Origin: Candidatus Heimdallarchaeota archaeon
GTDB lineage: Archaea > Asgardarchaeota > Heimdallarchaeia > Hodarchaeales > Hodarchaeaceae
Length of the DNA: 64,000 nt
Reading direction: 5' to 3'
NCBI GenBank assembly: GCA_020353515.1
Contig: CP070695.1
Coordinates: 3,552,050-3,616,049, forward strand
Both the position numbers and the translations under genes were made by a program. Position 1 is the first letter of the stretch. Each line of letters opens with the position of its first letter. Shown piece by piece: positions 36,868-44,074 of this stretch. The notes under the pieces are model-generated. The model was not told the origin of the DNA. It worked only from the letters and a program-made list of their open reading frames with translations, and searched no databases.

Positions 36868-38172
36868 TCATACAGGTCTCAAATTGCCCCATTTTTTTAA
36901 GGCCTTCTGAAGTTCAGGATGCGATTTAGCCTTCTCTTCGAGCGTGATTTCTTCTTGCCATGCCTCAATCGCTTGAACTGTGGCTTTGGTCCCTGCAGGA
37001 GTACCTCCAGGATGGCCATGAATACCTCCACCAACCTGTAGAACCATATCAGTGGTTCCATATACAGTTAGAACTTCTGGAAGAACTCCAGGGTGTAACC
37101 CACCAGAAGCTACAGGTAAGGTGGGTTTAATTTGACCCCATGTTTGCTCAAGTCTTCTACCCTTGTCTTCAGTAATTTCCTGTTTGAGAAGAAGATCTCT
37201 CATATCTAAAACGTCCTCCTTCGGACTATCAAGCTTACCCACAACAGTTCCAATATGGATATTATCAACACCAATTAACCTCATCAATTTAGCTAAGAAG
37301 TACATACTTATACCATGCGTATAATGTTTAGTGAACGTTGCATGCATTGCACGATGTGCGTGTATAGCCATATCTAGATCGCCTGCCAGATTTCTAAGAG
37401 TCTGAACACTTGCAAATCCAGTTGTTACGACATCAACCATGAAATATTTAAATCCATGATCATGAATAACCTTTGTACGGTTTTCCATCTCATGAGTTTC
37501 AGCAGTTACATTAATGAGTGCATCTTTTATTTCACCAGTTTCATTCTCGGCCTTATCTCTAACTTTTGCCATCTGTTCAACACGTTTCTCGAAAACATTA
37601 AATGATTGAGAGGTGAGGTTCTCATCGTCTTTAACCAAATCACCACCAGCGCTCCAAAAGTCCCAAGCTATTTCACAATGCTGTTCTACTGTCATACCAA
37701 TCTTAGGTTTAGGGACGCATGCTAATAAGGGGCCTTCATTCTTTTTGAAGATCCGTTGAATTGCTTCAACTCCCATATGCGGCCCCTTTGATCCTTTAAT
37801 ATATTCTAAAGGAAGAGTCGCATCTATTAGTCTCAAATTCTTAACAGCCTTCATACCAAAGATATTGCCAGCTATCCCAGACATTAGCTGAGGGATATTA
37901 TCTTTTTCCCATAATATCAATGGATAAGCGATTTTTACTAAATGCTTATCATTCCAAAATGCCAATCCTCGCATATCAAATATACGATCATCTAATGTCT
38001 CTAAAGTGGTCCACGTACCAATAGAGGATTCCGAAGCTAACCTCCCAATAGTGTCATCAATTGAAACTTCATCTGATTTATCAAAATAAAAAAGTGCAAC
38101 CAAGTCTTTGTCTTTTGGTTGATAATCTCTCTTAATAAAATCGTGATACCATTCAATTTTCTCTTTTGTCAT
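36868..38172 (-). CDS. rbcL: Ribulose-1,5-bisphosphate carboxylase, form III
   Basis: ASESSIGTW, AGNIFGMKA, PKPKIG, GDLVKDDE, HAHRAMH, HIGTVVGKL, PVASGGLHPG, QVGGGIHGHP. Start taken at ATG 38172 (MTKEK). Confidence 0.95.
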   Translation of the reverse strand: MTKEKIEWYHDFIKRDYQPKDKDLVALFYFDKSDEVSIDDTIGRLASESSIGTWTTLETLDDRIFDMRGLAFWNDKHLVKIAYPLILWEKDNIPQLMSGIAGNIFGMKAVKNLRLIDATLPLEYIKGSKGPHMGVEAIQRIFKKNEGPLLACVPKPKIGMTVEQHCEIAWDFWSAGGDLVKDDENLTSQSFNVFEKRVEQMAKVRDKAENETGEIKDALINVTAETHEMENRTKVIHDHGFKYFMVDVVTTGFASVQTLRNLAGDLDMAIHAHRAMHATFTKHYTHGISMYFLAKLMRLIGVDNIHIGTVVGKLDSPKEDVLDMRDLLLKQEITEDKGRRLEQTWGQIKPTLPVASGGLHPGVLPEVLTVYGTTDMVLQVGGGIHGHPGGTPAGTKATVQAIEAWQEEITLEEKAKSHPELQKALKKWGNLRPV

Positions 38173-38284
38173 GATAAAACCTCTCACAGTTTAGGTTCTC
38201 TTTATTTTTTACTTACTTCAATAGTAAGCTGATTTTTTGTTTATTAATACAGATTATTCTAAGAAATTCTTATCTTTTAAGATG

Positions 38285-39511
38285 CTAAATAAACGGGAGT
38301 GTTTCATCGTTTTCAACTCCCTCAGCCTGTACCATGAACTTCCAGCGGGTAAGCAGACGCTGAAATGCTTCTTTTATATTTTCGTCTACAGATAAATGTG
38401 ATTCTCCTTGAAAATTAAATAAGCGAAGTATTTTTGACTTTGTTTCAAATTTTGCTTCCAATCTTCCAATAAAATCACCTGAGTAAAAGAGGGGATATAC
38501 GTAATATCCCCATACGCGATCTTTAGGCTTTTTATATACTTCCCACACATATTCATAACTAAATAACTTATTTAAAAGCTGTCTATCCCAAATAAGTGGA
38601 TCCAATGGCCCAATGACTCTCATCTCATCATCTAGCTCTTGTTGGCATAAATTTTCCCAATTTGATGGAACAATAAAGCCCAAGCCCTCATCTTCTAATT
38701 GAACAAGTGAAGGTAGAAGATCTTTGGTAGATTCTCCAATTAATAGTTTTTCGGGAGAAATAGCTATTCTTTTCCCAAATCTGATTTTTCCATCTTTCTT
38801 GATGGTTATTTTACCAGTAGGAGTCACAGGGAAACTTTTTATCTTGAGTTTGAGCTTCATAAAACGTTGTTCTTCCTCCGAGTAAGATTCCTTTTTCAAA
38901 TGTGATTTTTCGATATAGTTCTCAATCAAATCATACGTTTTTCGGAAGTTATTATCTCTTAATACAGCAAGTTTACCCATAGCCCACAGAAGTTCTAGAG
39001 CTGTTCCTGAATTCCGACTAGTCTTCCAGACTGCGTATTTTGGATCAGCTTTTCCTAATTCAGTTAAATCGGAACCCCGAGTAATACCATGAGATCTAAC
39101 ATACTCCAATACCTGATCAAGCATATCAGGGTGGGTTTCTTCAAGTATCTTCAATGCTCGACTGTAGTATCTTCCAAGTTGATCTCGCCCAAGCGTTTGA
39201 GAGTAGAAAAGAGGAAAAAAATCAACATGAATCGCGTTTAAATTATGAAAATATGATTCAAAAATTAATTTCTCTGAATAAGCAATTTTTTCATAATCTC
39301 CTTGCTGATAATCTTGTATCCGAGAACTAAAGAAATAGTCATGGTACCTACCAGCAGGATTAAGAGGATCAAGTTGAATTAAACCCTGTTCTTTAATGAT
39401 TTTTCTTACATCGTTACCTTGCCAACGATGGAGATGACATCCCACTATTAACAGGCGTTTCAGTTCTTTCTGGGTAATATGAGGAATCGATGGCATTACT
39501 AACGTCCTCAA
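38285..39511 (-). CDS. YcaQ/AlkZ-family (HTH_42) interstrand-crosslink DNA glycosylase
   Basis: QxD motif IQLDP, ALELLWAMGKLAV, GPLDPLIWDR, YVWEVYKKPKDRVWGYYVYP, FIGRLEAK. Confidence 0.88.
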   Translation of the reverse strand: MRTLVMPSIPHITQKELKRLLIVGCHLHRWQGNDVRKIIKEQGLIQLDPLNPAGRYHDYFFSSRIQDYQQGDYEKIAYSEKLIFESYFHNLNAIHVDFFPLFYSQTLGRDQLGRYYSRALKILEETHPDMLDQVLEYVRSHGITRGSDLTELGKADPKYAVWKTSRNSGTALELLWAMGKLAVLRDNNFRKTYDLIENYIEKSHLKKESYSEEEQRFMKLKLKIKSFPVTPTGKITIKKDGKIRFGKRIAISPEKLLIGESTKDLLPSLVQLEDEGLGFIVPSNWENLCQQELDDEMRVIGPLDPLIWDRQLLNKLFSYEYVWEVYKKPKDRVWGYYVYPLFYSGDFIGRLEAKFETKSKILRLFNFQGESHLSVDENIKEAFQRLLTRWKFMVQAEGVENDETLPFI

Positions 39512-39658
39512 TGGATCTCATATTGTTATGTTAACCCAGTTTTTCAACGGCTTAAAGTTGAGCTTGTTCATTCTCTCTTTATATTTTACCAATCCTCTTA
39601 TAATAATTGCATATTCTCTACTTACCTAACCTAAAAATCAAGTGTGAGAAGAAAAATC

Positions 39659-42061
39659 ATGGCTGAGGCGTGCAAAACTCCTAAAGATATCTGGAAACCA
39701 TCAGAAAAACTTAGTCCAAGAATAAAAAAACTTCGAGAGGAATACTTTTCTTTTTATGAAAGGTACGATAGATATACAAACGAAGTAAGGCCTTATACCA
39801 CGGGTCGAAAGTGGGATAATGTCTATTCGTTCTTTCATTGGGGAGTGACGCCTGAAGGCATTCCATTCTTTCCAGGATTTAAAGATACTTTACGAGTACT
39901 AGCAGAAGTTGTTCAATTTCCAGATGAATACTATCGACGAACAATTGCTGAAAGAAAAGCATTATTTTTCAACAAGGTTCTTGCAGATCATCTACCAGTA
40001 TTGATATTAGAAGGAGAGTTGATAGTAGGGAGTCATTTCAATACAGCACTAAGTAAAGTTTTAACTGAATCAGAAACAAAAAAATGGGATAAAGGTCAAA
40101 CAGAATTTTTTAAAGAACTAAAGTTTCGATGTGAAACAGGAGAATTTAACTACGGCGCAATCCCAGGTCATCTTGTTCCTAATTATCCTAAAGTTCTCGA
40201 GAAAGGCTTTTCAGGAATCCAGAAAGAATTAAAAGAGTTACATGCTCAAATAAAAAAACCAGAACAAAAAACATGGCTTCAAGCACTAATTGATTCGTGT
40301 GAGGGACCTCGAGTATTAGCTAAAAGGTATTCAGATGAAGCTAAACGATTAGCTAATAAAGAATCTGATCCTAAACGTAAGGAAGAATTGATAAAACTAT
40401 CAAGAATCTGTGCTAAGGTACCTTGGGAACCTGCAAACACCTTTTGGGAAGCAGTACAATCTGTTTGGATGACTCATGCATTAGTATTAGCTGCTGAGAG
40501 TTATCCAGGCGCTGGAACAAGTCCAGGACGTATCGACCAATTTTTCTATCCTTATTACAGGAATGATGTTGAAAATGGAACATTAACAAGGGAATTTGCC
40601 AAAGAATTACTTGAATGCTATTGGATAAAACATAATTATGCTTATGACTTCCAAGGCCAAATAGGTAACTCACAAGGTATTAATTCGAGCTTTGGACAGC
40701 TAATAACAATTGGTGGGATTGATGAAAACCACGAAGACGCTAGCAATGATTTGACATGGTTAATACTAGAAGTGATTGAAGAAATCAATCTCCTTGAACC
40801 AAAACCAAATATTCGCCTTCATGCGAAAACCCCTCAACCCCTTATGACTCGAGTCGCGGAGCTAATAGCAAAAACTCAAGGATCACCTTTCTTGATGAAT
40901 TTTGACGAACTTGCTATAAAAGCACTAGTCTGGCAAGGAATACCAAAGAAGGAAGTTTGGAATTATGCTCCAGTCGGTTGTCTTGAAAACACCATGATTG
41001 GAAATGATGTATCTGGAACAGTAGATGTGAATGTCAATATTGCTAAAGCTGTTGAACTTACTATGAACAATGGTAAGGATATGAGGCTAGATATGCAATT
41101 AGGACCAAAGACTGGAGATCCAATAAAAGACTTTAAATCTTTTGATGAATTTTTGACTGGTTTTAAAGTTCAATTACAAGCTCTATTGGATCGAGCAATT
41201 GAAGCTTATAATTTTGCAGATAAACTACGACTAGACTACGAACCTGTTCCATACGTGTCTGTTTTAGTTGATGGATGTGCTGAATCAGGAAAAGATGCGC
41301 GATCTGGGGGAGCAAAATATAACTTTACAACAGTAGAAGGATTAGGACTTGCAAATGCAGCTGACTCGTTGGCAGCCATTAAAAAATTAGTTTATGAAGA
41401 AAAAAAAGTGTCGATGGAGAATTTAGTGGCAAATTTACGATCAAATTTCGAGGGAAACGAGGAACTTCGACAACTATTGATTAACCATGCCCCTAAATTT
41501 GGTAATGATGATGATTATGTTGATGAATTAGCGCGAGAAGTATCACGATTTTGGGGAGAATATGTATTCAAGAAAAAGTCTCCAGCGACGGGTCGCCAAT
41601 ATCGAGGTGGATATCTTTCTTGGAATTATTTTATTAGTTTTGCGCCGAAAACTGCAGCATTACCAGACGGAAGACTTCAAGGAGGCTATTTATCTGGTGG
41701 TGTTGGACCTTATCAAGGAATGGACATTACAGGCCCAACTGCTTCCGCTTTATCTGTCGGAAAACTAGGATTAGAAGTTCATCCCAATGGTACTTCTCAT
41801 ACAATGAGTTTCTCTCCAGCGTCCCTACGTGATGAAGAACATATTGAAAAAATGATAGCATTTTTACGGACATATGCTAAAATCGGTGGAACAGCTTTGC
41901 AAACGAATGTAATAAGTTCTGAAACCCTCATTGAAGCTCAAAGGCATCCTGAGCAGTATCGAAATTTATTAGTCAGAGTGACTGGATACAATGCCTACTT
42001 CACAACTCTGGGTAAAGAACAACAAGATGAAATCATTGCTAGGGAATCACATAAGGTTTAA
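39659..42061 (+). CDS. Glycyl radical enzyme (PFL superfamily, not PFL), substrate unknown
   Basis: ELIVG, GHLVPNY, GRIDQ, QLITIGG, single-Cys loop VGCLE, PKFGNDDDYVD, glycyl loop LLVRVTGYNAYF, QDEIIAR. Start at ATG 39659. Confidence 0.93.
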   Translation: MAEACKTPKDIWKPSEKLSPRIKKLREEYFSFYERYDRYTNEVRPYTTGRKWDNVYSFFHWGVTPEGIPFFPGFKDTLRVLAEVVQFPDEYYRRTIAERKALFFNKVLADHLPVLILEGELIVGSHFNTALSKVLTESETKKWDKGQTEFFKELKFRCETGEFNYGAIPGHLVPNYPKVLEKGFSGIQKELKELHAQIKKPEQKTWLQALIDSCEGPRVLAKRYSDEAKRLANKESDPKRKEELIKLSRICAKVPWEPANTFWEAVQSVWMTHALVLAAESYPGAGTSPGRIDQFFYPYYRNDVENGTLTREFAKELLECYWIKHNYAYDFQGQIGNSQGINSSFGQLITIGGIDENHEDASNDLTWLILEVIEEINLLEPKPNIRLHAKTPQPLMTRVAELIAKTQGSPFLMNFDELAIKALVWQGIPKKEVWNYAPVGCLENTMIGNDVSGTVDVNVNIAKAVELTMNNGKDMRLDMQLGPKTGDPIKDFKSFDEFLTGFKVQLQALLDRAIEAYNFADKLRLDYEPVPYVSVLVDGCAESGKDARSGGAKYNFTTVEGLGLANAADSLAAIKKLVYEEKKVSMENLVANLRSNFEGNEELRQLLINHAPKFGNDDDYVDELAREVSRFWGEYVFKKKSPATGRQYRGGYLSWNYFISFAPKTAALPDGRLQGGYLSGGVGPYQGMDITGPTASALSVGKLGLEVHPNGTSHTMSFSPASLRDEEHIEKMIAFLRTYAKIGGTALQTNVISSETLIEAQRHPEQYRNLLVRVTGYNAYFTTLGKEQQDEIIARESHKV

Positions 42062-42063
42062 CA

Positions 42064-43011
42064 ATGATGACGGATATAATGGGTCATGTACTAAACATTC
42101 AACGGTATAGTACTGAAGATGGACCTGGCATTCGTACTACAGTTTTTTTACAGGGATGTTCACTCAGATGCAAATGGTGTCAGAATCCGGAGAGTTTTGA
42201 ACTACAACCATATTTAGTATGGTATAGCGATAGATGTATTGCTGCCAGACACTGCATTGAAGTATGCTCAGATGATGCACTTGAACTCACAAAAGAAGGA
42301 ATGCAGATAGATCGATTTCGTTGCACATCTTGTGGAAATTGTGTACAAATATGTCCAACAAAAGCATTTGAAACCCTTGGACGGGAAATGACTGTCGATG
42401 AAGTGGTGTCTCAATCTCTCCGAGATAAATCTTTTTATAAAGAATCAAATGGTGGAGTCACACTCTCAGGGGGAGATCCTCTTTACCAACCAAAATTTTC
42501 GCTAGCAATTCTAAAAGATCTCAAAGATAACGAGGTTCATACAGCCCTTGATACTAGTGGTTATGCTAACCAAGAAACTTTTGAAAAAATCGTGAAACTT
42601 ACAGACTTAGTTCTACTAGATCTCAAAGTTATTGATCCTAAAGTTCATAAGAATATCACTGGTGTTGATAATAAAACGATCCTTTCAAATGCTCAATGGT
42701 TAGGACAACAAAAAATTAAAGTTTGGATTCGGACTCCGATTATTCCATCATATACTGATCAAGAGAAAAATATCCAAGCAATTGCATCTTATATTAATAA
42801 AAATATGGCTAATGTTGTTGAGCGTTGGGATCTCCTATGTTATAACAATATGTGCATTTCAAAGTGGAAACGATTGGATTTATCTTATGAATGTGAAGAT
42901 CTTCCATTAATGTCAGAAACAAAAATCAAAATATTAGCAAAAAATGCTCAATCAGCAGGAGTACCAGTCACGTGGTCAGGTGTTGTTGATAAAACGTGGG
43001 TGAAATATTAG
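42064..43011 (+). CDS. Glycyl-radical enzyme activating enzyme (radical SAM with ferredoxin insert)
   Basis: DGPGIRTTVFLQGCSLRCKWCQNPES, CTSCGNCVQICP, GGVTLSGGDP, ALDTSG. Confidence 0.95.
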   Translation: MMTDIMGHVLNIQRYSTEDGPGIRTTVFLQGCSLRCKWCQNPESFELQPYLVWYSDRCIAARHCIEVCSDDALELTKEGMQIDRFRCTSCGNCVQICPTKAFETLGREMTVDEVVSQSLRDKSFYKESNGGVTLSGGDPLYQPKFSLAILKDLKDNEVHTALDTSGYANQETFEKIVKLTDLVLLDLKVIDPKVHKNITGVDNKTILSNAQWLGQQKIKVWIRTPIIPSYTDQEKNIQAIASYINKNMANVVERWDLLCYNNMCISKWKRLDLSYECEDLPLMSETKIKILAKNAQSAGVPVTWSGVVDKTWVKY

Positions 43012-43805
43012 TGAAACTACCTAAAACTGTAAAAGAAGCTTTTGCATTGGAATTAGAGGCAGCTAAATTTATGGCTACTCGTGATGCAAATGGAGTACCA
43101 AATATAGCAATGATCTCAACCATCAGTCCATGGGAGAAAGATGAAGAGCAATTGATTTTTGGTAATTTTTTGATGTGGCAAACAAAAAAGAATCTTGAGA
43201 ATGGATCACCAGTCTCGATTTCCGTGATGACCTTAGACTTCAAATCCTATGAGGTTAGAGGAAGATTTCTTGGTTTCGAGACTTCAGGGGAGAAATTCGA
43301 TACAATGAGTAGCAAGGATCTTTTTCGTTACTCTGCTATTGGTTTGTTACGAAGTGTTGGGACCATTGCAATTGATGAGATCTATCCTATCAAGCTAAGT
43401 ATGCTAGGTGTTGGAACGGAATGGTTTTTGGCAAAAATTGCTGGAAAAAGAATCAAAGATCTTGAGAAAGGAAAGGGTATAAATCCATTAGTAATGCAAA
43501 ATGTTGGTGTGCTTCAAGGATCAAAATTCTTAACAGTCTCACGAAAAGACCATATGGAACAATTTCCCATCTTAGGAATGAAACCTGTGGATGATTATGT
43601 TATTATCCGTTCAGATCTTCCATTGAAAGAAGGAGATAATATAGCAATATCAGCTTTCAATATGGAACTTAAAGCTTTCCAAATAAAAGGAGAATATATG
43701 GGAGTAAGACGGTCAAGAGGAGTAAAGTTTGGTTATATTAGAGTGAACAACGTTCTGACACAAACACCCCCTCTTGTTTCTCGAGAAGTTCCAACTGATA
43801 ATTAA
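42996..43805 (+). CDS. Tandem pyridoxamine-5'-phosphate-oxidase-like (split-barrel) domain protein
   Basis: KFMATRDANGVPNIA..QTKKNLENGSPVSISV..SYEVRG; second degenerate copy KFLTV..IAISAF..AFQIKG. Alternative GTG start at 43011 overlaps the activase TAG. Confidence 0.8.
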   Translation: MGEILVKLPKTVKEAFALELEAAKFMATRDANGVPNIAMISTISPWEKDEEQLIFGNFLMWQTKKNLENGSPVSISVMTLDFKSYEVRGRFLGFETSGEKFDTMSSKDLFRYSAIGLLRSVGTIAIDEIYPIKLSMLGVGTEWFLAKIAGKRIKDLEKGKGINPLVMQNVGVLQGSKFLTVSRKDHMEQFPILGMKPVDDYVIIRSDLPLKEGDNIAISAFNMELKAFQIKGEYMGVRRSRGVKFGYIRVNNVLTQTPPLVSREVPTDN

Positions 43806-44074
43806 CCATTGTTGTGGATTCTTTCTTATTTTCTTCTTCAGTTTTTAGCTTTATAAGCATTGGCCAGAAAATCTGAGTTATGATTATTTTTATTTCAGTA
43901 ATATTAAATGTTGATAATAACACTATAACTCCTTAATTTTTGAATAATACTAAACAATAAACTATTTAAACCCTTAATTTTTTATTTTATTTGATCAATG
44001 ATTTTTGTGCATTAGCTCTTTGCATTGACTCAAAAATTAAGTAGACCAATATATCGAACAAAAGAAGATTAAAA

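Follow-up and report, generated by a model that had tools for sequence, protein, structure and literature searches.

A widespread, uncharacterised glycyl radical enzyme system of Asgard archaea with a conserved split-barrel partner

The stretch of DNA analysed here (the window) comprises 64,000 nucleotides of the Candidatus Heimdallarchaeota archaeon contig CP070695.1 (positions 3,552,050 to 3,616,049, forward strand), from a closed genome of 4.94 Mb. Three same-strand open reading frames (ORFs) spanning window positions 39659–43805 (+) encode an oxygen-sensitive glycyl radical enzyme (GRE), its radical S-adenosylmethionine (SAM) activase and a partner protein built of tandem split β-barrels. 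This GRE system is real, widespread and uncharacterised, and its conserved partner is of a new kind. The operon is not unique to this genome and represents one member of a module distributed widely over archaea and bacteria, many of them uncultured anaerobes. The interpretation preferred here, with a probability of a little more than one half (about 0.55), is that the operon constitutes a self-contained system of an uncharacterised clade of pyruvate formate-lyase-like (PFL-like) GREs, in which an enzyme of the elimination or isomerisation type would work with a dedicated flavin-type subunit or redox partner.

Family and active site of the radical enzyme

The GRE (800 residues, P0001; 39659–42061, +, from ATG at 39659 to TAA at 42059–42061) is placed in an orphan clade of the PFL-like, or PFL2, group. 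It matches PF02901 with 506 bits (E 1.9e-151) and, over residues 679–782, PF01228 with 100.6 bits (E 8.8e-29). The glycyl radical motif, R773-V-T-G776-Y777, is encoded at 41975–41989 (+), and R773, T775, G776 and Y777 are each at least 95% conserved. The cysteine loop G440-C441-L442-E443 (40976–40987, +) aligns with C433 and E435 of 1r8w, a glycerol dehydratase, and carries the CXE motif, in which C441 would hold the thiyl radical and E443 would act as the general base. From V439 to T445 (VGCLENT) the loop is invariant in 209 family sequences, with a single Cys and no Cys-Cys pair. An earlier reading made from the letters of the window alone (the sequence-only reading) had described an eliminase-type GCxE loop in place of the Cys-Cys pair of PFL, and it was right on both counts. 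A 2026 review assigns the CXE motif to all 1,2-eliminases and isomerases (PMC13450708).

In HMMER alignments with 1r8w, 5i2a and 6vxc, His171 (codon at 40169–40171, +) falls on His164 of glycerol dehydratase and His160 of HypD. It is invariant in 209 of 209 family members; at this position CutC has Asp and HpyG has Glu. His164 has been proposed as the general acid for the leaving hydroxyl (PMC13450708). Owing to the alignment of H171 with His164 and His160, the active site appears to be nearest to those of the C–O-cleaving dehydratases, and the sequence comparison lends reasonable support to a chemistry in which Cys, Glu and His bring about an elimination or isomerisation.

Assignment to a known class was judged by the cut-offs of curated hidden Markov models and by scores against the Protein Data Bank (PDB). 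Against NCBIfam equivalog models the enzyme scored 487 for HypD (cut-off 1100), 471 for HpsG (1000), 406 for CutC (1050), 331 for indoleacetate decarboxylase (1100) and 118.4 for PFL (TIGR01255; 994.2), and all of its equivalog scores were less than half of the cut-off. Eliminases and isomerases in the PDB were matched with 273–433 bits at 25–31% identity. As a positive control, the second GRE of the genome scored 1287.8 against the HypD cut-off of 1100; the method is thus able to recognise a known class. The sequence-only reading had made the novelty of the enzyme depend on its standing outside the characterised classes. It lies far below the curated cut-off of every characterised class, and these scores place it outside all the classes represented in NCBIfam, the PDB and the 2026 review.

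The control enzyme (L122:1492–3855, −, equivalent to C1:889333–891687) has its own activase just upstream and no partner. Most genomes of the phylum contain matches of about this strength (E ~1e-120 to 1e-135); HypD-type enzymes may be widespread among Asgard archaea, provided that these matches belong to that type.

The first 165 residues of the window GRE are clade-specific in sequence. The best PDB sequence match, to glycerol dehydratase (433 bits), covers residues 160–798 only, and the subfamily cut-off of TIGR01774 (PFL2-3) is missed (524.7 versus 678.2) because the first 165 residues do not match. The fold, however, is ordinary. The AlphaFold2 model (mean predicted local distance difference test, pLDDT, 88.6; predicted template modelling score, pTM, 0.91) aligns over its full length, at a template modelling (TM) score of about 0.80 and 25–31% identity, with propanediol dehydratase, glycerol dehydratase, HypD, CutC, YbiW, HplG and an A. 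fulgidus enzyme, with no favourite among them. The PFL-like ten-stranded barrel domain is present, as judged from the PF02901 match and the similarity of the model to many solved GREs. The unusual N-terminus of the sequence-only reading is therefore unusual in sequence, while its structure is predicted to be that of other GREs. The distinctive segments pointed out in the same reading are present and nearly invariant in the family: YTTGRKWD (residue 46), ESYPG (280), HNYAYDF (325), NSSFGQ (342) and GGYLSWNY (650).

More than 3000 database proteins match the GRE. Across the 209 family sequences, which share about 45–100% identity, 216 positions are at least 95% conserved. They include H171, E280-S-Y-P-G284, N326, Y329, D330, G346, Q347, N414-F-D416, V439 to T445, D456, N458, R649 and Y652 to Y657. 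Conservation on this scale makes it likely that one substrate is common to the whole clade. In the segments aligned with the active-site strands of solved GREs, the conserved residues are mostly Asn, Asp, Tyr, Ser and Gln, together with the Arg R649; we infer from them that a small polar, hydroxylated substrate would fit.

Among characterised enzymes, the B12-independent glycerol dehydratase of C. butyricum (1r8w/1r9d) and the 1,2-propanediol dehydratase of R. inulinivorans (5i2a/5i2g) are the best matches (433 and 406 bits, TM-score 0.80). They resemble the window GRE in the CXE loop, the His before strand 1, an Asp near the D447 position and a similar activase with a ferredoxin-like insert. 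Nevertheless, identity is about 31% and the N-terminal 160 residues of the window GRE are not alignable by sequence. The glycerol contacts in 1r9d, which we take to be H281, S282 and Y339, are replaced by A285 (Pro or Ala in the family), G286 and G346, and a Tyr-Pro insertion (Y282-P283) is present; with these contacts replaced, the substrate cannot be read off. Moreover, the two dehydratases have no third protein, and the window operon is without the context of a 1,3-propanediol dehydrogenase or a microcompartment.

The trans-4-hydroxy-L-proline dehydratase HypD (6vxc; 396 bits, TM-score 0.80) also shares the CXE loop and the His (the H160 equivalent). The two are set apart by the equivalog score given above and by the position aligned with HypD D278, presumably the amine contact, which is Ala or Pro in the clade; no partner gene goes with HypD in the source genome or in five multi-GRE genomes examined. 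YbiW and PflD, the 1,5-anhydrohexitol-6-phosphate isomerases (8id7, 8id0), apply CXE chemistry to a polyhydroxylated substrate, and the conserved residues of the window GRE are likewise polar with the addition of R649. They match with 335 and 314–322 bits, respectively, and have no partner protein.

In genome papers, PFL-like genes of Asgard archaea have been labelled 2-oxoacid formate-lyases or alkyl/benzylsuccinate synthases. Both assignments were considered for the window GRE and rejected. A pyruvate or 2-oxoacid formate-lyase is contradicted by the single Cys in VGCLENT and the TIGR01255 score (118.4 versus 994.2), an X-succinate synthase (Bss, Ass, Mas) by the lack of a small Fe-S subunit gene in or next to the operon and by the scores against 4pkc (236 bits) and 9o8u (260 bits). 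Lacking both the Cys-Cys pair and the small subunits, the clade fits neither label. The 2026 review counts no archaeal enzyme among the PFL-like GREs of known function and describes whole clades as lacking validation (PMC13450708); reviews agree that all characterised PFL-like GREs are bacterial.

The activase (315 residues, P0002; 42064–43011, +) starts with the ATG at 42064, 2 bp after the GRE stop, and ends with the TAG at 43009–43011. It scores 335.2 bits on TIGR02494 (cut-off 174.35) and stays below the cut-offs of all activase equivalogs, including that of BssD (249 versus 496). PF04055 and several Fer4 models match it. The motif C32-x3-C36-x2-C39 is followed by a ferredoxin-like insert with Cys clusters at residues 58–68 and 87–97.

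The split-barrel partner and its linkage to the enzyme

The partner gene (43011–43805, +; 264 residues, P0123) starts with a GTG at 43011 that overlaps the activase stop by one base (TAGTG); homologues and the P0123 database entry begin at this codon. An alternative GTG at 42996 would give a 16-nt overlap with the activase gene and a product of 269 residues (P0003). The alignment-based AlphaFold model (pLDDT 92.7, pTM 0.90) consists of two β-barrels joined by a helix. From the secondary structure of the model, the N-terminal barrel extends over residues ~15–127 (43053–43391, +) and the C-terminal barrel over residues ~168–250 (43512–43760, +; strands at 170–250). A column profile of the family shows conservation in the N-barrel of K19-F-x-A-T23, P30-N31, F50-G51, [KQ]57-[TS]58-x-x-N61-L62 and R106-Y107; the C-barrel is without the [KQ][TS]xxN motif. 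The two halves align by BLASTP with 22% identity over 88 residues (E 3.8e-6), a similarity that identifies the C-barrel as an ancient internal duplicate of the N-barrel. The 2-bp gap, the overlapping third gene and its two split-barrel domains had all been proposed in the sequence-only reading; the three ORFs lie where it placed them, and the domains are borne out by the model, the fold searches and the comparison of the two halves.

Fold searches with the N-barrel returned Swol_0183 (3in6; Z 17.6), HupZ (7kpz; 17.1), FMN-bound YviC (7eg5; 14.5) and the FMN-binding protein of D. vulgaris (1axj; 14.3), followed by F420-dependent reductases (Z ~12–13). Foldseek gave a probability of 1.0, and split barrels binding FMN, F420 and heme were among the Foldseek/VIA matches. 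A profile of the partner family found HupZ at E 7e-10 and the Swol_0183 FMN-binding protein at E 5e-9. For this set of small FMN-binding proteins and HupZ (5esc, 7kpz) Z lies between 14 and 17.6 over ~115–126 residues, and the N-barrel and the small FMN-binding proteins have ATxDxxGxPN and KTxxN segments in common. The latter are, however, single-barrel homodimers of ~120–150 residues with no known link to GREs, whereas the window partner holds two diverged barrels in one chain, only the first of which keeps these segments.

Of 56 partner sequences, no more than half share any one Cys or His, which argues against Fe-S clusters or a His-ligated heme and is compatible with a flavin. The flavin assignment rests on the similarity of fold and sequence to FMN-binding proteins. 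With regard to F420, CofD of its pathway is present in the source genome above the cut-off (301.6 versus 257.45; C1:729170–730075, +) and CofG is absent (36.6 versus 213.35); given this mixed result, F420 could also be the cofactor.

At E <1e-30 the partner family comprises ~150 representative clusters of ~250–300 residues, the shorter ones resembling fragments or single-barrel forms. No fusion of the partner with GRE, activase or another protein was found among the 150 best representatives. In some Asgard lineages, as at the loci L028 and L029 (family f14), the partner is a single barrel of 136–161 residues; in G002 and G004 (family f9) it lies 20–25 kb from the GRE.

Genes for partner-like proteins are present in 172 of 400 genomes of the phylum. 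Where both matches are listed, the partner lies on the contig and strand of the GRE, at an activase-sized gap or ~100 bp after GREs that are 45–85% identical. Gene maps of 21 Asgard loci gave the order GRE-activase-partner in 17 and GRE-partner in 3 more, with no other gene in common. A further 80 loci, collected with a bacterial homologue as query, belong to Actinomycetota (Geothermincolia), Chloroflexota, Desulfobacterota, Spirochaetes, Planctomycetes, Acidobacteriota and Thermoplasmata; the labels Promethearchaeota, Hodarchaeota and Thorarchaeota are also found among homologues. Linkage was counted by tblastn at the 81 of 100 collected loci that offer at least 2.2 kb downstream of the GRE. 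All three genes were found at 68 of these, GRE and partner at 4, GRE and activase at 5 and the GRE alone at 4, and two of the apparent misses proved by clustering to carry partners too divergent for the tblastn query. The partner gene, whose absence beside homologues the sequence-only reading had named as one fact that would overturn it, is accordingly kept at 72 of 81 loci by tblastn and at two more by clustering.

The linkage can be followed within single genomes. Five Asgard genomes of one family (f20: G162, G174, G241, G169 and G211) carry 8–11 GRE paralogues each. Clade-type GREs, defined as matches above 1100 bits with the N-terminus included, number 3, 1, 1, 1 and 2, and partner genes likewise number 3, 1, 1, 1 and 2, in 8 of 8 cases on the same contig, at distances ranging from direct adjacency to 20 kb. 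A further 37 GRE matches in these genomes, some of which are contig-end fragments, align only from about residue 140–170 and are all without a partner. As a separate observation, the GRE matches of this family fall into several score classes, a large expansion of uncharacterised radical enzymes. Among the 21 other genomes of the genus to which the window belongs, the partner was found in two, G060 and G076, and no other genome of this set has a clade-type GRE of full length; a third (G061) has a contig-end fragment of one, and most others have only a weaker, HypD-like match. Moreover, the partner stands directly 3' of the GRE at loci without an activase nearby (L026, L030, L115 and L120).

Pairwise identity matrices of 41 trios correlate with r 0.93 for GRE and partner, 0.87 for activase and partner and 0.85 for GRE and activase, values that are all inflated by shared ancestry. 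Mean identity over the same trios is 33% for the partner versus 57% for the GRE. In a FastTree phylogeny of the GRE rooted on the HypD paralogue, the Asgard sequences form several groups, which enclose those of bacteria and Thermoplasmata. The nesting and the four label changes show transfer between the domains; no direction or donor is named, because rooting on the long HypD outgroup branch is unsafe.

Dedicated extra proteins have precedents among GREs. The accessory subunits on record are those of HPAD, benzylsuccinate synthase (BSS) and 1-methylalkylsuccinate synthase (MASS) only (PMC13450708), and the β and γ subunits of BSS, γ of HPAD and δ of MASS resemble the window partner in being dedicated and clade-specific. 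They are small Fe-S or rubredoxin-like proteins, however, whereas the partner is a 264-residue tandem split barrel without a conserved Cys, and the large subunits of BSS and MASS are distant relatives of the window GRE (4pkc and 9o8u, above). A full-text literature search turned up no description of a split-barrel protein accompanying a GRE; most subscription journals lie outside that search, and the absence is not proof. The one tangential case was LssP, which is encoded in a limonenylsuccinate synthase operon and described as PNPOx-like.

Proposed mechanism and rival explanations

In the preferred reading, the activase would place the radical on G776. The substrate is pictured as a small polar metabolite, probably with several hydroxyl groups. 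C441 would abstract a hydrogen from a carbon that carries one of these hydroxyls or lies next to it, E443 would deprotonate that hydroxyl and H171 would protonate a neighbouring leaving group. The outcome would be a 1,2-elimination (a dehydration or a C–O/C–N lyase reaction) or a ring-opening isomerisation. The two-barrel protein is pictured as a pseudo-dimer, probably with one flavin (FMN-type) site in the N-barrel. It would serve the GRE rather than activases in general, and its part would be that of an accessory subunit or of a redox partner exchanging electrons with the reaction or its product. The sequence-only reading had inferred a new radical reaction whose product or electron supply is handled by a flavin or F420 protein; this is supported in part, and the reaction may equally be known elimination chemistry on a new substrate.

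A bolder version of this scheme can be drawn, in which the partner is an obligatory flavin subunit and the clade performs the first PFL-like GRE reaction needing electron transfer, for example the reductive dehydroxylation, or a different net redox conversion, of a common polar metabolite, in a system that is old in Asgard archaea and has been exchanged with subsurface bacteria. Class III ribonucleotide reductase, which needs a reductant, offers an analogy for an electron-requiring GRE. This version is speculative and is given only a small chance of being correct.

Several observations weigh against the preferred reading. At a few loci (L060, L061, L063 and L108) GRE and activase are found without the partner, and in some Asgard genomes the partner lies 6–20 kb from the GRE. 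The inflation of the identity correlations by shared ancestry counts here too. The closest solved relative of the partner by sequence, HupZ, binds heme, and the window's partner scores 23.7 on the Pfam model PNPOx_N (PF01243), below the gathering score of 28.1; a bacterial member of the family scores 30.8, and 41% of the nearest Atlas cluster carries PF01243. On the side of the enzyme, the presumed glycerol contacts are replaced, as described above, and Pfam tallies of 371 neighbouring proteins show no common pathway, nor is one indicated by any recurrent downstream enzyme or transporter.

The partner might instead be the dedicated electron donor of the activase, a flavodoxin substitute that reduces the [4Fe-4S] cluster for SAM cleavage and has no connection with the GRE reaction. 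It has the fold of small FMN-binding proteins resembling electron carriers, such as that of D. vulgaris, and the usual order GRE-activase-partner, with start and stop overlapping between activase and partner, would suit such a role; the PFL activase of E. coli uses flavodoxin in vivo (PMC13450708). This explanation is nevertheless considered unlikely. The number of partners follows one GRE clade, although the same genomes hold 6–9 further GREs whose activases need reduction, and the partner directly follows the GRE where no activase is within reach. In addition, its divergence tracks that of the GRE better than that of the activase, and the source genome has ordinary flavodoxin-domain proteins able in principle to reduce activases. 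On account of the one-for-one counts, the GRE-adjacent genes without an activase, the correlation of 0.93 versus 0.87 and the presence of ordinary flavodoxins, a role tied to the GRE's own reaction is favoured over that of a general activase reductant; a donor for this clade's activase alone could still be accommodated.

A non-redox accessory was also considered, that is, a structural or regulatory subunit, perhaps binding a ligand or heme, with a role like that of the small BSS and HPAD subunits, another fold and no cofactor chemistry. Accessory subunits controlling radical transfer exist in other GREs (PMC13450708; PMC12590467), and the heme binding of HupZ, the fast evolution of the partner relative to the GRE (the mean identities given above) and the dispensability of the C-barrel in some lineages are in keeping with such a role. 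It is quite unlikely in view of the conserved [KQ][TS]xxN-L segment and the other N-barrel residues held in common with FMN-binding relatives, the lack of a conserved His or Cys to ligate heme or a metal, and the lack of fused forms suggesting a permanent complex.

Finally, the GRE could be a divergent form with a known function (glycerol or propanediol dehydratase, formate-lyase, or alkyl/benzylsuccinate synthase) and the third gene an unrelated neighbour. The two dehydratases are the top PDB matches, five loci, distributed over two separate tree branches, have a glycerol kinase next to the module, and published readings of Asgard PFL-like genes include 2-oxoacid formate-lyases and Ass/Bss. 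Such an assignment is very improbable, since the Cys-Cys pair is missing and the PFL model gives 118 against 994, small subunits are lacking with BSS and MASS among the weakest PDB matches, the glycerol contacts are not kept, and all equivalog scores are less than half of their cut-offs. Moreover, the partner is kept one-for-one with the GRE across phyla, unlike an unrelated neighbour.

Operon surroundings, substrate leads and significance

Upstream of the GRE lies an AT-rich intergenic region of 147 bp (39512–39658, +) with a TATA-like element, TTTATATT, ~75 nt before the start codon, as read from the letters; it is a probable archaeal promoter region. Sites found by a sigma-70 scan, which is not applicable to archaea, were no more numerous than in shuffled sequence, and a terminator scan was likewise uninformative. 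Directly 3' of the partner stop, a T-rich stretch (43806–43850, +) is possibly an archaeal oligo-T terminator. It is followed by 438 bp without a convincing ORF, in which only chance-sized frames of 49 and 61 residues occur. No Rfam family or riboswitch was matched in or beside the operon.

The operon is flanked by genes for an AlkZ-like glycosylase, a type III RuBisCO, a CysK-like enzyme, an N6/N4 DNA methylase, a CDF cation exporter and TldD/PmbA, which point to no pathway. The AlkZ-like DNA glycosylase (38285–39511, −; PF06224, E 1.5e-26; no NCBIfam match) adjoins the operon divergently, and the type III RuBisCO (36868–38187, −; TIGR03326, 540 bits versus a cut-off of 497) lies two genes upstream on the opposite strand. 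No gene of the size of a small subunit was found in or beside the operon, and no microcompartment, substrate-transporter or aldehyde/alcohol dehydrogenase gene near it, in agreement with the sequence-only reading; the CDF protein nearby is a cation-efflux system.

Among the neighbours of other members of the module, the only recurrent ones were a protein resembling acyl-CoA dehydrogenases (ACAD; 18 occurrences in two bacterial lineages), glycerol kinase (5), MFS transporters, B12-radical SAM proteins, GH51 and GNATs. The ACAD-fold gene stands directly before the GRE or after the partner at L041–L046, L051, L053, L061–L063, L067 and L070 (Geothermincolia and Dehalococcoidia); at L061 and L063 it follows the activase and no partner was found. 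Only the N-terminal and middle domains match well (for example in L063:4918–6033, +), and the best NCBIfam matches are a prolyl-carrier-protein dehydrogenase and an acryloyl-CoA reductase, at ~135 bits. The source genome holds no close counterpart. GlpK (734.6 bits versus a cut-off of 590.35) adjoins the module at L084, L100, L101, L102 and L111 (for example L102:300–1823, −), in a Dehalococcoidia/Thermoplasmata clade and, on a separate branch of the tree, in an Acidobacteriota metagenome-assembled genome. These two neighbours are weak leads to the substrate, not evidence for it. At the Asgard loci L021–L040, GNAT domains were the most frequent Pfam match (8 members among 110 neighbouring proteins), and at L021 seven tandem ORFs of ~170 residues precede the GRE.

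The clade is large and highly conserved, and it extends over many Asgard lineages and over several phyla of bacteria that live in anoxic sediments and groundwater. Where metabolic reconstructions of Asgard archaea count such genes as formate-producing steps, they would have to be re-examined. If a flavin-type protein is indeed tied one-for-one to a GRE, the enzyme class would gain a component of a new kind, and co-expression of all three genes may be required for activity. Once the substrate is identified, anaerobic carbon turnover would be extended by one reaction.

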